Positions 1-4,640 of a DNA stretch of 4,640 nucleotides are shown piece after piece. The notes beneath the pieces are model-generated. The model saw only the letters and a program-made list of their open reading frames with translations, was not told the origin of the DNA and made no database searches. The stretch comes from a virus (Duplodnaviria; Heunggongvirae; Uroviricota; Caudoviricetes). A program made the position numbers and the translations under genes. The stretch lies in IMG/VR virus record IMGVR_UViG_2541047778_000009. One strand, written 5' to 3'. The stretch's first letter is position 1. Each line of letters opens with the position of its first letter.

Positions 1-149
1 AAGGCTGGGCCATACTCCTCCGGCAGAAGCAGAAAAAGCTTATTATGCTTCCATCGGAAACGATGATCTGGCAGCCTGAGTTCACAGATAAAACACTCTC
101 CAGGAAACCCGGGGCGGTTCATCTGGGTACATTAGATGCTTTTTGCTGA
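1..149 (+). pseudogene. Truncated inverted duplicate of the 5' region of the large gene at 3492..4640; frame is open from the window edge, ATG at 45, stop at 147..149
   Basis: Plus-strand translation from the ATG at 45 gives [26 protein letters not shown], identical to the first 26 residues of the minus-strand ORF 3492..4622. It then diverges (LGTLDAFC) and stops exactly after the repeat boundary at 122/123. The frame is also open upstream to position 3. Confidence 0.35.
27..122. repeat. Left arm of a perfect inverted repeat (partner 4545..4640)
   Basis: Manual comparison: the reverse complement of 4545..4640 is identical to 27..122 (96 of 96). Identity breaks at 123 (left) versus 4544 (right). 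The right arm runs to the window edge, so the repeat may extend further; positions 1..26 would then pair with sequence beyond 4640. Confidence 0.9.
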
Positions 150-657
150 CTAGCATATTTACAGCATCACGAAGCGGAGTCCTGTCATCAACAGATGTTT
201 TCTTCCGTGCATTTGCTGCCTCTCCCTTTGTCCAGTAGTCATGCAGCACAGTAAAGCATTCTTCCTGGTACTGAATCAGTTTATCGCGGATGTCAGCACG
301 AACTTTCTCAGGGTTGATGCTGAACAGCCATCCATTTAACTTCTTCAAAGGAAGGCAGAGTAGCTTACGAAGCTTACCATCAGCGGCAACCATGTTCATA
401 TGAACACAGTTGAATTTGCTAATCTGCTTCATGAGTTTTGTTTGCTGCGTTGACCAGCTCATTCCGAGGTTTTCAACGATTGGCTTCATCGCAACATATG
501 CAACTCCGGCAGCCATGGCGGTGATAATTTGCTGACCGTTGAATGGCACGTAAGAGGTGTTCACTGCTTCTAAAATTGCTATACTATTCATGTTGGTTTT
601 TCTCCACGGATTTACCGACAACCGAAGCCCTGACTGTTCCAGCAGTTGGGGCTTCAC
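82..657 (-). CDS. Phage antirepressor-like protein (P22 Ant N-terminal domain-like), possibly C-terminally truncated
   Basis: 191-codon ORF with a GTG start at 657; an alternative ATG at 591 ([21 protein letters not shown]...) lies about 10 nt after a GGAG. The segment FNGQQ...[14 protein letters not shown]...[13 protein letters not shown] resembles phage antirepressor N-terminal domains from memory (not searched). It sits directly downstream of the arc-like gene on the same strand, as ant does in the P22 immI operon. The last ~12 codons and the stop are encoded inside the inverted repeat (85..122). Confidence 0.55.
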
Positions 658-823
658 TGTTTTGATTTCTTTGCCGCATCAAGCATCACTTCTGAAAACG
701 TGCGCTTGCCACTGAATACTCTTTCTCTTCTCAATTTTTCGTTCGTGCCAAATGATTCGCCATGAACAAAATTTGGTCTTAAAATGGTAATCGCAATCTC
801 TTTGACTACTGCATCCAAGCGAA

Positions 824-976
824 TCACACCGTTACCCCCTCTCTCTTCAGGCTGTCTATCAGGCGCTTGATAACCTCTGAGTTAAACGACCTGCACTCTT
901 CCTTTGCCCTGCTACCGATAGCATCCTTTAACGACTGCGGCATCCTTACCAAAATCTTACTTATTTCTTTCTCCAT
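824..976 (-). CDS. arc: Arc-like ribbon-helix-helix transcriptional repressor (50 aa)
   Basis: From the ATG at 976, preceded by GGAGGG 4 nt upstream on the minus strand. The protein MEKEISKILVRMPQSLKDAIGSRAKEECRSFNSEVIKRLIDSLKREGVTV aligns along its length with P22 Arc (FNLRWPREVLDLVRKVAEENGRSVNSEIYQRVMESFKKEG), including the N-terminal beta-strand and the GRSVNSE motif. The ORF-track extension to 1012 begins at a TTG with no ribosome-binding site and is not preferred. Confidence 0.8.
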   Translation of the reverse strand: MEKEISKILVRMPQSLKDAIGSRAKEECRSFNSEVIKRLIDSLKREGVTV

Positions 977-1014
977 GTTACCCTCCACGCAAACAACTCT
1001 TTTCGAATACAAAA

Positions 1015-1067
1015 GATAGCAAAGTGAGTATATCTAGTCAAAATTTTTTTGCATACACTTTGCTATC
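1015..1067. promoter_or_regulatory. Candidate operator: perfect 12-bp inverted repeat arms (GATAGCAAAGTG at 1015..1026, CACTTTGCTATC at 1056..1067) separated by a 29-bp AT-rich spacer, within the divergent arc-like / mnt-like promoter region
   Basis: Arms are exact reverse complements by direct reading. They lie in the 114-bp gap between the divergent starts at 976 (minus) and 1091 (plus), where P22 carries the overlapping Pant/Pmnt promoters and the Arc and Mnt operators. Promoter hexamers were not confidently assigned. Confidence 0.55.
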
Positions 1068-1090
1068 AAATTGAATACCAAAGGTGTTAT

Positions 1091-1339
1091 ATGGCAAAGG
1101 GTGTGTCAATTTCTCCAACTACGGTAAGAATCCCTGAATCTTTACGCGAGGCTCTTGCTGTCAGAGCATCAAAAAATGGTCGCTCTGTTAACTCCGAGAT
1201 CGTCATGATTTTGCAAGCCGCGATTGATGAAGATAGGTCGCCAAAGTCAGTTGAGTCATTTGCTCAGCAAGAAGCTGATAAATTCAAAGAGGCGCTACTT
1301 GAGACGCTAAAGACCATGTATGCTAAGGATGAAAAATAA
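1091..1339 (+). CDS. mnt: Mnt-like ribbon-helix-helix transcriptional repressor (82 aa)
   Basis: From the ATG at 1091, preceded by AAGGTG 4 nt upstream. The protein MAKGVSISPTTVRIPESLREALAVRASKNGRSVNSEIVMILQAAI...FKEALLETLKTMYAKDEK matches P22 Mnt (83 aa) in length, the N-terminal RHH region (FNFRMPMEVREKLKFRAEANGRSMNSELLQIVQDAL) and the C-terminal helix (LKDLYKK). It is divergent from the arc-like gene as in P22. The ORF-track start at 1049 is a TTG extension and is not preferred. Confidence 0.8.
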   Translation: MAKGVSISPTTVRIPESLREALAVRASKNGRSVNSEIVMILQAAIDEDRSPKSVESFAQQEADKFKEALLETLKTMYAKDEK

Positions 1340-1875
1340 TGCTGCACACAATTCATTTCTTATGCCCTGTTAACACTGCCACTGTTGGGCAACTTCAGAA
1401 CCACTGTCTCACCGCATTATCTCAAGGCGCAACTGAATTAAATATCCATATATCAAGTCAGGGAGGGGAAACTGCTGCTGGCTTTACTGCGTATAACTTT
1501 CTTAAGTCACTCCCTGTTACCGTTAGAACTCACAACATAAGCAATGTTGAATCCATAGCTAATATCGTTTTCCTGGCTGGCTCAGAACGTTTCGCAAACC
1601 CATTATCAAGATTCCTGTTACATCCTCTATTATGGTGCTTTGCCTCCCCAGCCGCCGACCATGCCAGATTGAGAGAGTACGGGAAATGCCTCGATAACGA
1701 TCTTGATCGCTTCGTTGAGACGTTCAATATCGACATCGGAACCCATATTAGGTGGGCATCCCTGATAGCAGACTCGACCATTTTGGATGCTAACAAGGCT
1801 CTTGAGCATGGCATAATTAATTCCATAAAAACTGCAAGGCTGGCATCCAATCAGGCAAACTGGTGGGTTGTTTGA
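1339..1875 (+). CDS. ClpP-fold (S14-like) serine peptidase-like protein, 178 aa, translationally coupled to the mnt-like gene
   Basis: The ATG at 1339 overlaps the mnt-like stop (TAATG). Manual alignment to E. coli ClpP: NIHISSQGGETAAGFTAYNFL against [21 protein letters not shown]; a candidate nucleophile Ser72 (codon 1552..1554, context NVESIAN against GQAASMG); His95 (codon 1621..1623, LLHPLL against MIHQPL); a candidate Asp145 or Asp150; and C-terminal ANKALEHGIINSI against APEAVEYGLVDSI. Homology is judged by eye only. Confidence 0.55.
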   Translation: MLHTIHFLCPVNTATVGQLQNHCLTALSQGATELNIHISSQGGETAAGFTAYNFLKSLPVTVRTHNISNVESIANIVFLAGSERFANPLSRFLLHPLLWCFASPAADHARLREYGKCLDNDLDRFVETFNIDIGTHIRWASLIADSTILDANKALEHGIINSIKTARLASNQANWWVV

Positions 1876-1899
1876 TGGGTAAATCATGATTACTCCTTA

Positions 1900-1926
1900 T
1901 AAAAAACCCACCTGACGGTGGGTTTA
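1900..1926. terminator. Bidirectional intrinsic terminator between the convergent genes at 1339..1875 (+) and 1924..2373 (-)
   Basis: Stem ACCCACC (1906..1912), loop TGAC, stem GGTGGGT (1917..1923). On the minus strand the stem is followed by six T (complement of AAAAAA at 1901..1906), a strong terminator for the YafO-like operon. On the plus strand it is followed by TTT only, so it is weaker there. The hairpin overlaps the minus-gene stop at 1924..1926. Confidence 0.7.
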
Positions 1927-2373
1927 GTCAAACATAGTGTTTCTAAAGTCTCTCGCATACCCTGCTAACACTCTCATTCTATTATGATTGTTAGCAGACA
2001 TGTGAGCTACAGGATGAAAAAGAGCAATCAATGAATACCTGTTCTCATCAAAAAGATTTTGTGCATAAACGAGAGCGGTATTGGATGTTTTATGCCACTG
2101 CAACTTTTGCGGTGTGCTGATATCTGTGCCATTTTTTATTGGCTCAAATTTATTTTCACCAATTGCTAAATGAAGGTGCATAAGGCCTGCATCTTCAATA
2201 TCAGGAGGTCGATGATAAGAGGTGTCTCTGCCAAAATAGCTGGGCAACGTTCCCGTAGACTTGTAGATGATAAAATCATCTACAAGTGTTTGTTTTAAAT
2301 CAGGAAACTCAACAAAAACCGGGGAGAAAAAATAGTCAAAACTATCCTGATTATATTCCACGGTTACTTGCAT
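1924..2373 (-). CDS. YafO-family type II toxin-like protein (putative ribosome-dependent mRNA interferase), 149 aa
   Basis: ATG at 2373 with GAGG 6 nt upstream. Motifs DDFIIYKSTGTLPSYFGRD, HLHLAIGEN, ALVYAQNLFDE and LIALFHPVAHMSANNHNRM parallel the E. coli YafO sequence as recalled from memory (DFISYKRDGVLPDIFGRD, HIHLANEN, HLVYCQGAFDE, LLIAILKPEPHKLARDNNQM). It is the second gene of a tightly spaced two-gene operon (8-nt gap). Confidence 0.6.
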   Translation of the reverse strand: MQVTVEYNQDSFDYFFSPVFVEFPDLKQTLVDDFIIYKSTGTLPSYFGRDTSYHRPPDIEDAGLMHLHLAIGENKFEPIKNGTDISTPQKLQWHKTSNTALVYAQNLFDENRYSLIALFHPVAHMSANNHNRMRVLAGYARDFRNTMFD

Positions 2374-2381
2374 GTTTTACC

Positions 2382-2948
2382 TCAGTGGAAGTTACCAGAG
2401 TGAAACACACGAGTCCCGTGCTCAGCAAGCGCACGCAAACCAGCCATATCTACGGAACTATCAAAAACAACCGGAACACATGAGCGTTGTTTAATAAGAC
2501 TATTCAGGTTGGTTACGGCAGATCTGGCATCAGCAACAACGATATAGATATCTCTTGCGATCTCTTTAAAATCAGCAGAAGCTTCTTTGAATACCGATTT
2601 CATTGCCCCTTCAAGTCCTCTCAATTGATGCTCTATCAATCGAGACTTTTCTGGTTCAATGATAGACAACACATTGTCTACATTCTCATCGGTAGCGTTT
2701 GCAAGAACACGATAAGCGTATTTCAGCATTCGAGACAATTCTTTAATCGAAGACACCGCCTCATGAAGCTCATCATTAGCCCGTTCACTGCTGAATGAGG
2801 ATTGATGGTAAGCGTGCTGAACGTTATCAGTAACAACCACCTCACAACTGAACGCAGAAGCTTGCTGTAATAGCAAACCTATTGCGACTCCAGCTTTGGC
2901 AGCGTTCAAGCTAAACATTTCATCAATCCCATTAGTCTCATTGCTCAT
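2382..2948 (-). CDS. Hypothetical protein (188 aa), upstream operon partner of the YafO-like toxin; candidate non-canonical antitoxin
   Basis: ATG at 2948, preceded by a near-perfect Shine-Dalgarno AAGGAGG 5 nt upstream. The ORF-track start at 2978 is a TTG with no ribosome-binding site. Stop TGA at 2384..2382, with the SD of the downstream toxin overlapping it. No family recognised by eye; predicted mostly helical with an acidic central region. It is not YafN/RelB/DinJ-like in size or sequence. Confidence 0.6.
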   Translation of the reverse strand: MSNETNGIDEMFSLNAAKAGVAIGLLLQQASAFSCEVVVTDNVQHAYHQSSFSSERANDELHEAVSSIKELSRMLKYAYRVLANATDENVDNVLSIIEPEKSRLIEHQLRGLEGAMKSVFKEASADFKEIARDIYIVVADARSAVTNLNSLIKQRSCVPVVFDSSVDMAGLRALAEHGTRVFHSGNFH

Positions 2949-3015
2949 ACAAACCTCCTTCTTATCGGAGATTATCAATAGCTATGCATCCATTGAATAC
3001 ACGCTATGCGCAATA

Positions 3016-3044
3016 AGTTTACGTCACGTGATATCATTATGCAA
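3016..3044 (-). promoter_or_regulatory. Candidate sigma70 promoter for the 188-aa/YafO-like operon with an 8-bp palindrome (TCACGTGA, 3024..3031) in the spacer
   Basis: Minus strand reads TTGCAT (complement of 3039..3044), a 17-nt spacer, then TAAACT (complement of 3016..3021). The perfect palindrome TCACGTGA lies in the spacer, and GCTATGC recurs at 2981..2987 and 3003..3009 downstream of it. This matches the layout of an autoregulated toxin-antitoxin promoter but is judged by eye only. Confidence 0.3.
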
Positions 3045-3123
3045 CCACCGTTCTATCACCGACTAACTTTACTCCCACTCCTATACATCATCTGGTATCC
3101 TGCGCAAAACTAAGGAGGTTGGT

Positions 3124-3474
3124 GTGAATGCTCAGTCTGTCATCATGGTTTTCCTTGGGCTGATTGTCGCAAAACTATATCCAGACTGGTGGAAAGGGGC
3201 ATTAGCTACTGTCGCCATCTATTTGCTTTTATCCATCGTTAAGCGATCACTCGCTGAGACCGTAAATCAAGCAAAACGTTTCTCATTTAAGAGTTTAATA
3301 AACTATGTTACTGGGCTTATTTTTTGCCTTTCAATTCTGATCGCTTCGGCTTTTTTGCCCGTATCAATAGCTAATTTTTTTGGCGCACCATATGAGGTAG
3401 GTTATCTATTCTCTGTTTCCTGTCTTGCCATTGCTCTTCTTTACCTGTGGACGAGATCAAAGAATAAAAATTAG
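3124..3474 (+). CDS. Small integral membrane protein (116 aa, about 4 predicted TM helices); candidate superinfection-exclusion (SieA-like) or immunity protein
   Basis: GTG start at 3124 with AGGAGG 5 nt upstream. Hydrophobic stretches: VIMVFLGLIVAKLY, ALATVAIYLLLSIV, LINYVTGLIFCLSILIASAFLPVSIANFFG and VGYLFSVSCLAIALLYLW. It is convergent with the large gene at 3492..4640 and ends 17 bp from its stop. Its position relative to mnt/arc/ant matches sieA in P22. Confidence 0.6.
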   Translation: MNAQSVIMVFLGLIVAKLYPDWWKGALATVAIYLLLSIVKRSLAETVNQAKRFSFKSLINYVTGLIFCLSILIASAFLPVSIANFFGAPYEVGYLFSVSCLAIALLYLWTRSKNKN

Positions 3475-3486
3475 CCATCCGTGGCT
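3473..3486. terminator. Short hairpin between convergent genes (AGCCA-TCCG-TGGCT); possible weak terminator for the minus-strand gene
   Basis: 5-bp stem with a 4-nt loop, read directly. On the minus strand it is followed by AATTTTTATT. The stem is short, so this is a low-confidence call. Confidence 0.25.
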
Positions 3487-3491
3487 GCCAG

Positions 3492-4640
3492 TTATTGAGC
3501 TTCTTTTTGTGATGCCTGTGCGACTCTGGTGAGCGATTGTGTGACCGTACTGATCGCTCTGTCATATGCTGTGCTACCTTTTGGCGTATTTGCCAGACGT
3601 AACAAGGCATTTCGTATAACAGGGCTTTCGTATGCCTTCGCAGCTCCTCCTACGACACCAGCAGCAGGAACAACAAACGCAGCCGTTTTTAGCATCCCCG
3701 CTAATACTGCTGCGTTTATGATGCCACCACCAACTAACAATCCATAAAGCTGCTGACCATTTAAGTTTTGAACGTTCGCTTTTGCCGCGTGTCTTGTATC
3801 GTTGAGGTATTTAATAACGCCGTCCAGTTCCTTTCCATGTACGCCTTTAAAGAAAGTTGCTGATTGCTTCCTGTTCCGGTGTAACGCATTAATAAACTTT
3901 TCAACACTAATATTTCCAGACGGATCAGTCGCCTTATCTACAGCATTCTGAACTATGGCTGCTCGTGCGTTTTGCCTACCATTGTCATCCAGAAGCCTGT
4001 AAAGCTGAGAACGTTCTGATGGGTTTTGGCTAAAAACGAGTTTTGTTACATCCTCAGGTGTAGCCTTGCCGCTGGCTATTGCCTTTTGAACGCGCGTTCT
4101 TCCCATCATGTCATTGAATCTAGCCCATGAGCGATCAACCCTAGACATATTGGCAGCTTCTTCTGAGCCTAGTTTTTGGGATACTGCTTTTTTCATATCC
4201 GCTGTATATGCCTTGTAGACAATATCGCTGGCTTTCTGGAGCGTGTCTTTATCAACAGTCTCGTTTGAATTCATGAACCGCTTTCGAAGGTCAGTTCTGT
4301 TTTCTCTCGCCAGACGCAGGTCATTGGGTCCGCTGGTGATATCGTCTTTAAATTGCTGCAAGACTTTTACCGCGGCTCTATCCTGAGATTTGCCCGGGCG
4401 GCTTAACACGGCAATCTGATTGTCGATAGCTTTTACCGTGTTTGAGAGATCGACAGGGGTATCCCCCATAGCGTCAATTATGCGGTTATATCGCTTTCCT
4501 GCTGCCTCAATGAATTTTTGTTGCCCTTTAGTCGCAGATTCATAATGAACCGCCCCGGGTTTCCTGGAGAGTGTTTTATCTGTGAACTCAGGCTGCCAGA
4601 TCATCGTTTCCGATGGAAGCATAATAAGCTTTTTCTGCTT
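3492..4640 (-). CDS. Large helical, charged protein with a C-terminal hydrophobic Gly/Ala-rich helical hairpin; probably 5'-partial; candidate phage DNA-ejection protein (P22 gp16-like position) or membrane-active toxin
   Basis: ORF track gives 376 aa from the ATG at 4622, but the frame has no stop between 4623 and the window edge (KQKKLI) and no convincing SD precedes the ATG, so the true start may lie outside the window. The hydrophobic segment LYGLLVGGGIINAAVLAGMLKTAAFVVPAAGVVGGAAKAY is encoded around 3630..3750. The first 26 codons after the ATG lie inside the inverted repeat. No family recognised by sequence; the function is inferred from composition and synteny. Confidence 0.7.
   Translation of the reverse strand, partial: KQKKLIMLPSETMIWQPEFTDKTLSRKPGAVHYESATKGQQKFIEAAGKRYNRIIDAMGDTPVDLSNTVKAIDNQIAVLSRPGKSQDRAAVKVLQQFKDDITSGPNDLRLARENRTDLRKRFMNSNETVDKDTLQKASDIVYKAYTADMKKAVSQKLGSEEAANMSRVDRSWARFNDMMGRTRVQKAIASGKATPEDVTKLVFSQNPSERSQLYRLLDDNGRQNARAAIVQNAVDKATDPSGNISVEKFINALHRNRKQSATFFKGVHGKELDGVIKYLNDTRHAAKANVQNLNGQQLYGLLVGGGIINAAVLAGMLKTAAFVVPAAGVVGGAAKAYESPVIRNALLRLANTPKGSTAYDRAISTVTQSLTRVAQASQKEAQ
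4545..4640. repeat. Right arm of the perfect inverted repeat (partner 27..122)
   Basis: See the left arm. Identical over 96 bp in inverted orientation, and it reaches the window edge. Confidence 0.9.

Follow-up and report, generated by a model that had tools for sequence, protein, structure and literature searches.

[quoted passage not shown] 1983, cited in PMC2629481 and PMC8022706). An "ant moron" located between gene 16 and gene 9 is described by Villafane et al. (2008; PMC2629481, Fig. 3), which lists an APEC-1 type and diagrams the genes of the ant moron types. The immI region of phage epsilon34 (NC_011976) has annotated Psar, sar, arcO and Pmnt/Pant, and an mnt-arc-ant locus is also found in Kapi1, another P22-like phage of E. 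coli (MT813197; PMC12922286). The expression of Kapi1 mnt was not detectable in lysogens (PMC12922286), thus it is not guaranteed that the regulatory logic of P22 can be transferred to its relatives. How the specificity of ribbon-helix-helix (RHH) repressors and heteroimmunity evolve has so far been addressed for the most part using Arc and Mnt variants made by engineering.

The window, that is, the whole stretch of 4,640 nt analysed here, contains a region that we identified, with a probability of roughly 0.9, as the P22-type immI antirepressor control module of a Lederbergvirus-like prophage residing in E. coli beside tRNA-Arg and intS. A Pant-like promoter is followed leftward by arc-like, ORF57 and ant, and the mnt-like gene and a ClpP-like gene are read rightward. 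The Arc-like, Mnt-like and Ant-like ORFs, the 114-bp region and the 12-bp inverted repeat listed in the original prediction were all present where it had placed them, and its assignment of the locus to an immI architecture in a P22-like phage or prophage was borne out by the canonical sar and by the gp16-tailspike context in sister loci. The main genes are:

122..591, minus strand: ant', the antirepressor gene cut after codon 156 of 300, ATG at 589-591
824..976, minus strand: arc-like gene, encoding a 50-aa RHH repressor from its ATG, PF03869 (Arc) at 5.1e-12
977-1090: arc-mnt intergenic region, 114 bp
1091..1339, plus strand: mnt-like gene, 82 aa, PF03869 at 9.5e-11
1339..1875, plus strand: ClpP-like gene, 178 aa, PF00574 at 2.2e-11
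ORF 3492-4544: gp16-family ejection gene, labelled from PHROG and RefSeq, truncated by IS629 copy 2

The intact sister loci indicated that the prophage is of Lederbergvirus type, and in S88 and phiv205-1 the immI module is flanked by an ejection gene of the P22 gp16 family and by the tailspike gene, which corresponds to its location in P22. APEC O1 and S88 match window 122-4545 at 100% identity, while phiv205-1 (MN340231) shows 99% identity over 122-1925. The APEC-1 type ant moron of these three (S88, APEC O1, phiv205-1) thus carries the same allele as the window, but together with an intact 300-aa ant, a tailspike gene and a full gp16, whereas the module of the window is bracketed by two inverted IS629 elements. 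The module is a fresh allele of a known system, published as the "APEC-1-type ant moron" and inactivated in the window, and it does not overturn what is known about immI. The start codon of the ClpP-like gene overlaps the mnt-like stop codon (TAATG) and the two genes are probably co-transcribed, judging from this arrangement; the ClpP-like gene also lies directly after mnt in S88, phiv205-1 and the loci L042-L045, while P22 has orf59 and sieA after mnt. A YafO-family toxin gene (Pfam) is located 0.6 kb from the RHH pair. The PADLOC scan of ORF57, the ClpP-like, YafO, 188-aa, 116-aa, Arc-like and Mnt-like proteins gave no meaningful match (a ZorA hit with E 0.004 was ignored), the NCBIfam scan gave no score above the curated cut-off, and a partial Rfam match to sroH at 1903-1932 (19.5 bits vs 80) was rejected as a mere terminator hairpin.

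Gene order, orientations and the sizes of the Arc/Mnt-type RHH repressors are the same as in P22 immI. The HMM searches proposed with the original prediction returned PF03869 for the Arc-like (WP_000410001) and Mnt-like (WP_001051911) proteins and PF10547 (P22_AR_N, 1.2e-45) for the Ant-like protein, all above the curated Pfam cut-offs (45.9 bits vs 20.4 for Arc-like). The best solved-structure matches in PDB were Arc repressor entries for the Arc-like protein and 1MNT (P22 Mnt) for the Mnt-like protein; weaker Pfam matches of the latter were FitA-like RHH, RHH_5 and HicB. The predicted resemblance to P22 Mnt and Arc held at the level of the family, but not as a close one, since BLASTP identity was 39% for Arc and 36% for Mnt, the latter over residues 11-79 with the C-terminal region included. 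According to this alignment, the Mnt-like protein appears to be composed of an N-terminal RHH domain and a C-terminal part alignable to the tetramerisation region of P22 Mnt. Both proteins have beta-strand residues other than those of P22 Arc and Mnt, therefore a different operator specificity is expected. Variation of the arc-like gene among relatives is biased to third codon positions (31 synonymous and 13 non-synonymous changes), and the mnt-like gene shows 9 synonymous and 3 non-synonymous changes. The Mnt-like protein of Kapi1 is 54% identical to that of the window, and the search of genome contigs with the Mnt-like protein found a single locus, which belongs to Serratia.

The 232-bp arc-ant interval had been noted as a difference from P22; it was taken as non-coding, and the two genes of P22 were taken to be adjacent. 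Neither of the latter two points was upheld: the interval holds sar (592-658) and ORF57 (654-827), and the corresponding P22 gap is 68 bp long and holds sar. The alternative figure of 166 bp came from a mechanical Ant ORF beginning at GTG 657, while 232 bp is obtained from ATG 591. The interval and the adjoining 5'-end of ant contain the following:

557..585, plus strand: Psar-like promoter inside the ant 5' end, GTGTTC-17-TATACT with TG upstream of the -10
592..658, plus strand: sar antisense RNA, Rfam RF00262, 83.9 bits (gathering score 43), E 2.8e-17, full-length model
654..827, minus strand: ORF57, 57 aa, between arc and sar, PHROG 17642 full-length at 1e-43

The sar RNA is placed exactly as in P22 and is complementary to both the leader and the ribosome-binding site of ant, with its first base immediately upstream of the ant ATG. 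Both hairpins of the Rfam model are present, but the window copy has a one-base deletion near the 3'-end; the predicted fold has -32.4 kcal/mol (z -6.0), and the terminator hairpin at 624-655 is followed by a T run. The Psar-like stretch is identical to the annotated Psar of epsilon34, and Psar-sar shows 96% mean column identity with epsilon34 and P22. The ant 5'-end, Psar and sar of epsilon34 are 98% identical to window 122-656 and its parts follow in the same order, but epsilon34 has P22-type Arc, Mnt and operators, the mosaic joint between the two being at the sar 3'-end. Kapi1 shares with the window the P22-like coliphage background, the divergent RHH genes and the antirepressor gene, but its ant overlaps arc, leaving no room for sar, and its annotated intergenic region is very short. 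ORF57 (WP_000620145.1), which has no equivalent between arc and sar of P22, begins with a GTG overlapping the arc stop codon (GTGA) and is kept in Klebsiella aerogenes at 86% amino acid identity; its synonymous and non-synonymous counts come from only 6 variable sites, which are too few to inform on coding.

The Ant-like protein is 79% identical to P22 Ant over residues 1-157 and, as had been noticed, it is much shorter than P22 Ant (full length about 300 aa), because an IS629 element cut the gene after codon 156. The insertion cost ant its C-terminal 144 codons. Compared with S88, phiv205-1 and epsilon34, in which ant is intact with 903 nt, the similarity breaks off at 122, and the same allele with the full 300-aa Ant (903 nt) occurs in E. 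coli S88, APEC O1 and phage phiv205-1. The ORF itself spans 82-591 on the minus strand as it continues into IS629 up to a stop codon at 82-84, and it is a pseudogene according to RefSeq. The inverted repeat at its end, which had been noted along with the short Ant, consists of IS629 ends and is not part of the switch:

1..121, plus strand: 3' end of IS629 copy 1, OrfB C-terminus with stop at 77-79, terminal inverted repeat tip ...GGCGGTTCA ending at 121
4546..4640, minus strand: end of IS629 copy 2, inverted relative to copy 1

The match of window 1-122 to Stx phage sequences that bear the annotation IS629 or IS629 transposase OrfB is 100%, and copy 1 is annotated in the source-like genome as an IS3-family transposase with programmed frameshift; its junction with ant is at 121/122. 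The gp16 gene lost its 5' part to the second IS629, which has the opposite orientation. The two ends form a 96-nt inverted repeat (27-122 / 4545-4640) bracketing the window. Two readings of this terminal repeat were considered, an invertible segment and a composite transposon. The former was rejected since other strains have IS629 elsewhere in this prophage and the junctions vary, and we favour two independent copies with adjacent deletions. The SCU-116-like genome has in addition lost the structural genes and primary immunity region. The P22-like E. coli prophage is being dismantled by IS629, and the immI module in the window is a relic with intact regulators and a dead antirepressor output, which, ant being a pseudogene, has no present action as an antirepressor switch. 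Two apparent anomalies of the locus have thus disappeared: the gap is accounted for by sar and ORF57, and the short Ant by the IS629 truncation.

The remaining differences from P22 are concentrated in the arc-mnt intergenic region, where the following elements were located:

1013..1041, minus strand: Pant-like promoter toward arc found by the promoter scan, -35 TTGACT (1041-1036), 17-nt spacer, -10 TATCTT (1018-1013)
1015..1026, no strand: arm 1, GATAGCAAAGTG, overlapping the Pant -10 hexamer and spacer
1056-1067, no strand: arm 2, CACTTTGCTATC, inside the 18-bp near-palindrome CACTTTGcTATCAAAtTG (1056..1073)
1003..1015, plus strand: second motif T(C/T)GAATAC(A/C)AAAG, copy 1, between Pant -10 and arc, which is the P22 Mnt operator position
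1071-1083: second motif T(C/T)GAATAC(A/C)AAAG, copy 2, over the mnt ribosome-binding site

The arms form a perfect 12-bp inverted repeat with 29 nt between them (41 bp centre to centre). When the 114 bp were shuffled 5000 times with dinucleotides preserved, an inverted repeat of at least 12 nt arose 9 times (0.18%). A search for further copies of the 12-mer found none in the window at up to 2 mismatches, and none at up to 1 mismatch across 16 kb of the intact sister prophage. The Pant-like region (1007-1041) aligns without gaps to P22 Pant and Oarc, and the stretch comprising arm 1 and the next 10 nt (1016-1036, ATAGCAAAGTGAGTATATCTA) appears to correspond to P22 Oarc in both position and sequence, with 14/21 positions identical to the P22 and epsilon34 Oarc as counted by reading the ungapped alignment. 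Between Pant -35 and mnt the window has approximately 27 bp that are absent from P22; these comprise an A/T tract, which lies at 1042-1050 just upstream of the -35, and the second, inverted operator-like copy. The near-palindrome that contains arm 2 is located 18-35 nt upstream of the mnt ATG and has a perfect TTTGATATCAAA core in many relatives. The promoter scan detected no rightward sigma-70-like Pmnt for mnt; TACACT (1054-1059) is invariant in all families but lacks a -35 and was not claimed as Pmnt. The second motif was found only at its two positions against 0.01 expected by chance, a value that shows only its absence elsewhere as the pattern was built from these two copies. The alignment with the P22 control region, also proposed earlier, was ungapped over Pant and Oarc and revealed no P22-like Omnt dyad between Pant -10 and arc, where the window has a GAATAC repeat. 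Relatives do carry palindromes at the P22-Omnt position: in the Serratia locus L046, GAATAC forms part of the perfect 17-bp dyad GTATTCTATATGAATAC (GTATTC-N5-GAATAC) at the same place. The arms predicted as a palindromic operator are perfect, but, as far as can be read from the sequence, they represent two separated candidate sites rather than one operator, and the P22 Mnt operator is without a clear counterpart at its usual place.

Conservation of the palindrome was supported by comparison of the immI families. The Serratia relative keeps 23/24 arm positions compared with 24/38 in the arc-proximal leader, its core (1015-1067) keeps 50/53, and the arms stay complementary across diverged families. 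In an alignment of 14 sequences from about four families, which represent few independent lineages, the arms were complementary in 86.9% of the cells, 5 of the 12 arm pairs changed on both sides, and the covariation score was 0.356 versus 0.153 for shuffles (reached in 0/500) and at most 0.123 for slid controls; the covariation was also computed in an 8-sequence version. Other families have sites that are each palindromic in themselves and occur three times, for example ACACNGTGT in L041-L045. The best conserved block is Pant -35 with the A/T tract (15-17/17 positions across all families), around which the Arc/Mnt N-termini and the operator-like repeats change together. The operator comparison covered the loci other than those of Kapi1 and Klebsiella ST899. 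This natural immI allele series is a ready data set for studying the evolution of RHH repressor specificity and of heteroimmunity.

By analogy with P22, where Pant is under repression by Mnt and Arc and the C2 repressor is inactivated by Ant, the Mnt-like protein would hold Pant shut in a lysogen so that no antirepressor is made, while upon infection Pant would fire, the Arc-like protein would build up and Pant would then be shut down, with sar limiting the translation of ant. The 12-bp arms would be two inverted copies of one repressor-binding site, the first in the Pant spacer/-10 region, at the place of P22 Oarc, and the second before mnt. With such a pair of sites, one protein could control both divergent units. 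The Arc-like and Mnt-like proteins are only 36-39% identical to those of P22, thus the wiring may differ.

There is nearly an even chance that the arms are operator half-sites of the Mnt-like protein. The Mnt-like tetramer would occupy the near-palindrome 1056-1073, resulting in mnt autoregulation, and the half-site 1015-1026 over Pant -10, and it might bridge these sites 41 bp apart, while the Arc-like protein would bind the family-invariant spacer core (TA.CA..GTGA..ATAT). In six alleles the arm type follows the N-terminus of Mnt, PTT(V/I)RIP occurring with GATAGCAAAGTG and PY(S/G)VRMP with TATCA(C/T)(C/T)GTG, and it is not tied to the Arc type, as L040 and L117 have different Arc N-termini and the same arms. 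Moreover, the site aligned with arm 2 in L040, L083 and L117 is the same palindrome as that at the P22-Omnt position. However, linkage alone could give this co-segregation because the intergenic region adjoins the mnt 5'-end, a K-to-R difference in Arc also tracks the arm type in 5 of the 6 alleles, and arm 1 aligns with P22 Oarc rather than Omnt. We lean toward the Mnt-like protein as the arm reader on the basis of these natural domain-swap alleles, in which linkage and the Arc K/R difference are confounding.

The opposite assignment, which seems plausible but at somewhat less than even odds, makes the arms Arc-like operator sites and the GAATAC repeats Mnt-like sites. The Arc-like protein would then recognise both the spacer 21-mer of Pant (1016-1036), which corresponds to the situation in P22, and the second copy before mnt, and T(C/T)GAATAC(A/C)AAAG would serve the Mnt-like protein as its site, once at the start of Pant (1003-1015) and once at the mnt ribosome-binding site (1071-1083). 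The roughly 27 extra bp set the region of the mnt promoter apart from Pant, and repression of both units would therefore take two sites. This arrangement is consistent with the ungapped 14/21 match of 1016-1036 to P22 Oarc at the same place of the spacer, with the position of arm 2 inside the extra bp and with the confinement of the second motif to its two sites. L046, which shares the Mnt N-terminus, has the perfect GTATTC-N5-GAATAC dyad at the Omnt position; L104, with P22-type Arc and Mnt N-termini, has a distinct dyad there and a 9-bp inverted repeat between the Pant spacer and the mnt ribosome-binding region. On the other hand, the window shares the Mnt N-terminus of L046 but not the left half of its dyad, and L040 and L117 have identical Pant spacers although their Arc N-termini differ (VDCIVRMS and SRIVVRMP).

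Starting again from the Mnt-like protein as the arm reader, a wider proposal, which we regard as rather unlikely, is that this immI allele family is wired unlike P22. In place of an Mnt operator where Pant starts and an Arc operator within the spacer, there would be two inverted copies of one site, 41 bp apart on either side of Pant -35 and the A/T tract, for a single repressor, most likely the tetrameric Mnt-like protein. Its binding, possibly with bridging, would repress Pant and would autoregulate mnt together with the co-transcribed ClpP-like gene, and the specificity of the repressor would have been re-assorted in nature by swaps of N-terminal RHH segments onto conserved C-terminal halves.

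It is far less probable that the arms act as RNA, forming a hairpin (12-bp stem, 29-nt loop) that serves as a processing or attenuation signal in read-through transcripts, such as those of a late operon running toward the tailspike gene. Such a structure is predicted to be stable on both strands (-16.1 and -17.3 kcal/mol, z -2.7 and -4.3), the arms keep their complementarity across families with changes on both sides, and the late operon of P22 reads through the region (PMC2629481). However, the supposed loop coincides with the best conserved block, which includes Pant -35 and the A/T tract, arm 1 overlaps Pant -10 and aligns with P22 Oarc, and a hairpin would not need sites that are palindromic on their own, like the threefold ACACNGTGT of L041-L045 or the near-palindrome of arm 2.

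The suggestion that the RHH genes are a toxin-antitoxin or plasmid-partition pair (CopG, ParG or FitA-like) lying by chance beside an antirepressor gene, to which the FitA-like RHH, RHH_5 and HicB matches, the PHROG "partition protein ATPase" labels and the toxin gene 0.6 kb away could point, deserves hardly any credence, as Arc is the best Pfam family of both proteins, P22 Mnt and Arc are their best PDB matches, the Mnt-like protein aligns to P22 Mnt through the C-terminal region, sar, Psar and ant stand in canonical order in a locus flanked by gp16 and the tailspike gene, and neither RHH gene has a toxin gene next to it. Since the "partition protein ATPase" label is also attached to the mnt genes of epsilon34 and ST160, its presence on Mnt homologues in PHROG and RefSeq looks like a propagated misannotation; for the annotation of the window, this label appears to be wrong and ant is to be treated as a pseudogene.

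The three ORFs and the 114-bp region of the original prediction were confirmed by the ORF listing and a coordinate check. The parts of the module and their order, listed below with the neighbouring genes, were observed directly.

82-591, minus strand: Ant-like ORF, ATG at 591, stop at 82
654-827, minus strand: ORF57, 57 aa, its GTG start overlapping the arc stop
824-976, minus strand: Arc-like ORF, 50 aa
977-1090: arc-mnt intergenic region, 114 bp
1091-1339, plus strand: Mnt-like ORF, 82 aa, divergent from the Arc-like ORF
1339-1875, plus strand: ClpP-family protein gene, 178 aa, its ATG overlapping the mnt stop (TAATG)
1924-2373 and 2382-2948, minus strand: a gene pair, one a YafO-family toxin gene (PF13957, 3e-22), preceded by a 188-aa ORF (PHROG 8416)
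3124-3474, plus strand: hydrophobic ORF, 116 aa, adjoining the gp16 gene

HMM searches assigned the Arc-like and Mnt-like proteins to the Pfam Arc family (5e-12 and 1e-10, respectively) and the Ant-like protein to P22_AR_N (1e-45), while the best solved structures were Arc repressor entries for the first and P22 Mnt (1MNT) for the second. The close resemblance to P22 proposed for the two repressors was generous (Arc showed 39% and Mnt 36% identity, the alignment of the latter reaching the C-terminal region); for Ant, with 79% identity to residues 1-157 of P22 Ant, the same wording would be fair. Mnt homologues in PHROG 2685 and 795, as well as epsilon34 and ST160 mnt in RefSeq, bear the product name "partition protein ATPase", which looks like a propagated misannotation because ATPase activity is impossible for an 82-aa RHH repressor.

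The arc-ant interval had been described as a non-coding gap separating genes that adjoin in P22. Neither part of this description stood, as arc and ant of P22 are separated by 68 bp occupied by sar, and the interval of the window is filled by sar and ORF57. On the plus strand, 592-658 matched the Rfam sar RNA over its full length (83.9 bits vs the gathering score of 43); its 5′-end falls 1 nt upstream of the ant start codon, a terminator hairpin forms its 3′-end, and the mean column identity of the Psar-sar stretch with P22 and epsilon34 was 96%. ORF57, taking up the remainder, matched one PHROG family end to end, is annotated in RefSeq, and its counterpart is still an open ORF in Klebsiella aerogenes (86% identity). 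Among about 150 related loci (L numbers) collected by scans with the Mnt-like and Arc-like proteins, the arc-sar slot was variable, holding an 89-aa ORF in L030, a Cys-rich 61-aa ORF in L040, and being empty in L041-L046.

The Ant-like protein is indeed shorter than P22 Ant and ends in an inverted repeat, the cause being truncation by IS629. Two IS629 copies, inverted relative to each other, contribute the same end to both edges of the window: 1-121 and 4546-4640 are each 100% identical to annotated IS629 and form a 96-nt perfect repeat (27-122/4545-4640). Homology to intact ant ends at 122, after codon 156, past which the reading frame continues for 13 codons into IS629, and the second copy cuts the gp16-family ejection gene. 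Thus, both supposed differences from P22 are ordinary; ant is a pseudogene in this genome and the immI module survives as a relic whose regulators are intact. The IS629 pair flanks the 4.4-kb interior with the same end inward, in a composite-transposon-like arrangement. An invertible segment was rejected, because the insertion points of IS629 in this prophage vary from strain to strain; the deletion end-points also differ, and the pattern is that of IS-driven prophage decay with adjacent deletions.

E. coli S88, APEC O1 and many further strains match positions 122-4545 at 100% identity; their prophage adjoins intS, and in it an intact module whose ant measures 903 nt is flanked by a tailspike gene and a P22-gp16-family gene. 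The Lederbergvirus phiv205-1 contains 122-1925 at 99% identity. The exact arrangement of the window was found in SCU-116, in the order intS, acyltransferase gene, tailspike fragment, IS629, window interior, IS629, early-left genes and torI, hence the structural genes, lysis genes and primary immunity region were deleted. The proteins, sar and the intact sister loci support the P22 immI-like interpretation, the module being an uncharacterised new allele of a well-known system. In Villafane et al. (2008; PMC2629481), the gene16-gene9 interval is named the "ant moron" and described as in rapid flux, and an APEC-1 type is among those listed; the allele of the window has therefore already been published, as a gene diagram.

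The 12-bp perfect inverted repeat predicted in the control region was present (GATAGCAAAGTG at 1015-1026, arm 1; CACTTTGCTATC at 1056-1067, arm 2) and is not a chance feature, as shuffling the 114 bp 5000 times with dinucleotide composition preserved gave an inverted repeat of at least 12 nt in only 0.18% of cases. Neither the rest of the window nor 16 kb of the intact sister prophage contained a further copy of the 12-mer. The promoter scan revealed a sigma-70-like promoter toward arc on the minus strand (−35 TTGACT, 1041-1036; 17-nt spacer; −10 TATCTT, 1018-1013) and no rightward promoter for mnt. MAFFT aligned 1007-1041 without gaps to the Pant and Oarc segment of P22 and epsilon34, and the 21-mer at 1016-1036 (ATAGCAAAGTGAGTATATCTA) matched Oarc (ATAGTAGAGTGCTTCTATCAT) at 14/21 positions, thus arm 1 makes up the left portion of the candidate counterpart of Oarc. 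Compared with P22, the window is about 27 bp longer between the Pant −35 box and the mnt ribosome-binding site, and these additional bases hold an A/T tract and arm 2, which lies within an 18-bp near-palindrome (1056-1073) having a perfect TTTGATATCAAA core in most close relatives. In the alignment with P22, the Mnt operator palindrome had no counterpart at its usual place; a motif, T(C/T)GAATAC(A/C)AAAG, occupies this place (1003-1015), and its only other copy in the window covers the ribosome-binding site of mnt (1071-1083).

Non-conservation of the palindrome in related genomes, the second refuting outcome named with the original prediction, was not what the relatives showed. One symmetric arm position varies in close E. 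coli relatives (G/T in arm 1, C/A in arm 2), and a Serratia locus with 78% Mnt identity kept the core 1015-1067 at 50/53 positions vs only 24/38 in the arc-proximal leader. In more distant families, the Pant −35 and the A/T block were almost invariant (15-17/17 positions), and the repeated motif was swapped for TATCA(C/T)(C/T)GTG (L083, L109, L115, L117 and L040) or for three copies of ACACNGTGT (L041-L045, L130 and L142); the N-terminal beta-strands of the repressors differ in these families. Arm columns were complementary in 86.9% of cells across 14 sequences, with 5 of the 12 pairs changed on both sides; the observed covariation score was attained by none of 500 shuffles and slid registers scored far lower. 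With only about four lineages represented, these figures lend support without being conclusive.

The best reading of the arms is that a single repressor has its putative site here in two inverted copies, one in the −10/spacer region of Pant and the other 5′ of mnt, and this predicted layout is the only element that is new, mildly so. Position and the similarity to Oarc point to the Arc-like protein as the candidate binding both arms. The natural recombinants weakly suggest the Mnt-like protein: L040 and L117 share the same spacer and arms, yet their Arc N-termini differ, while L083 and L109 have an Arc similar to that of the window, with Mnt and arms both different. However, this comparison is confounded by linkage and an Arc K/R difference. 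An RNA hairpin formed by the arms is energetically possible but a poor fit: it would place the conserved promoter in the "loop", and each site is a palindrome by itself in other families.

Mosaic joints were seen inside the repressor genes (L040-L046, L083-L089, L098-L106 and L109-L145 vs 824-1339 of the window), where very different N-terminal RHH segments are joined to near-identical C-terminal halves (Arc ...NSEVIKRLIDSLKREGV.V, Mnt ...SVESFAQQEADKFKEALLETLKTMY), a parallel in nature to the swaps of Arc/Mnt specificity made by engineering. In L045 (2017-2567), the same ClpP-like gene is preceded by a tandem pair of mnt-like genes that differ in their N-termini.

By analogy with P22 (PMC2629481; PMC12111858), Pant would transcribe arc, ORF57 and ant, the Arc-like protein would turn Pant off after infection, and sar would block ant translation, while in the lysogen the Mnt-like protein made by the prophage would keep Pant off. 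The overlap of the mnt stop and the ClpP-like ATG suggests that the two genes are probably expressed together from the prophage, so the ClpP-like protein would be made alongside Mnt. Ser, His and Asp are apparently there by eye, the protein had no match in PADLOC, and the gene also lies 3′ of mnt genes with other DNA-binding N-termini (L042-L045). Phages of the P22 type are not known to possess a prohead protease. Between the convergent ClpP-like and YafO genes, a G+C-rich hairpin with A and T runs on either side (AAAAAACCCACCTGACGGTGGGTTT, 1900-1935) looks like a bidirectional terminator; it was the source of a spurious partial sroH match in Rfam. The 188-aa ORF matched no Pfam family and would be an atypical YafO partner; the pair is possibly a toxin-antitoxin-like or defence moron. 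The 116-aa ORF matched no family and probably encodes a membrane protein, its position being roughly that of the superinfection-exclusion gene sieA in P22.
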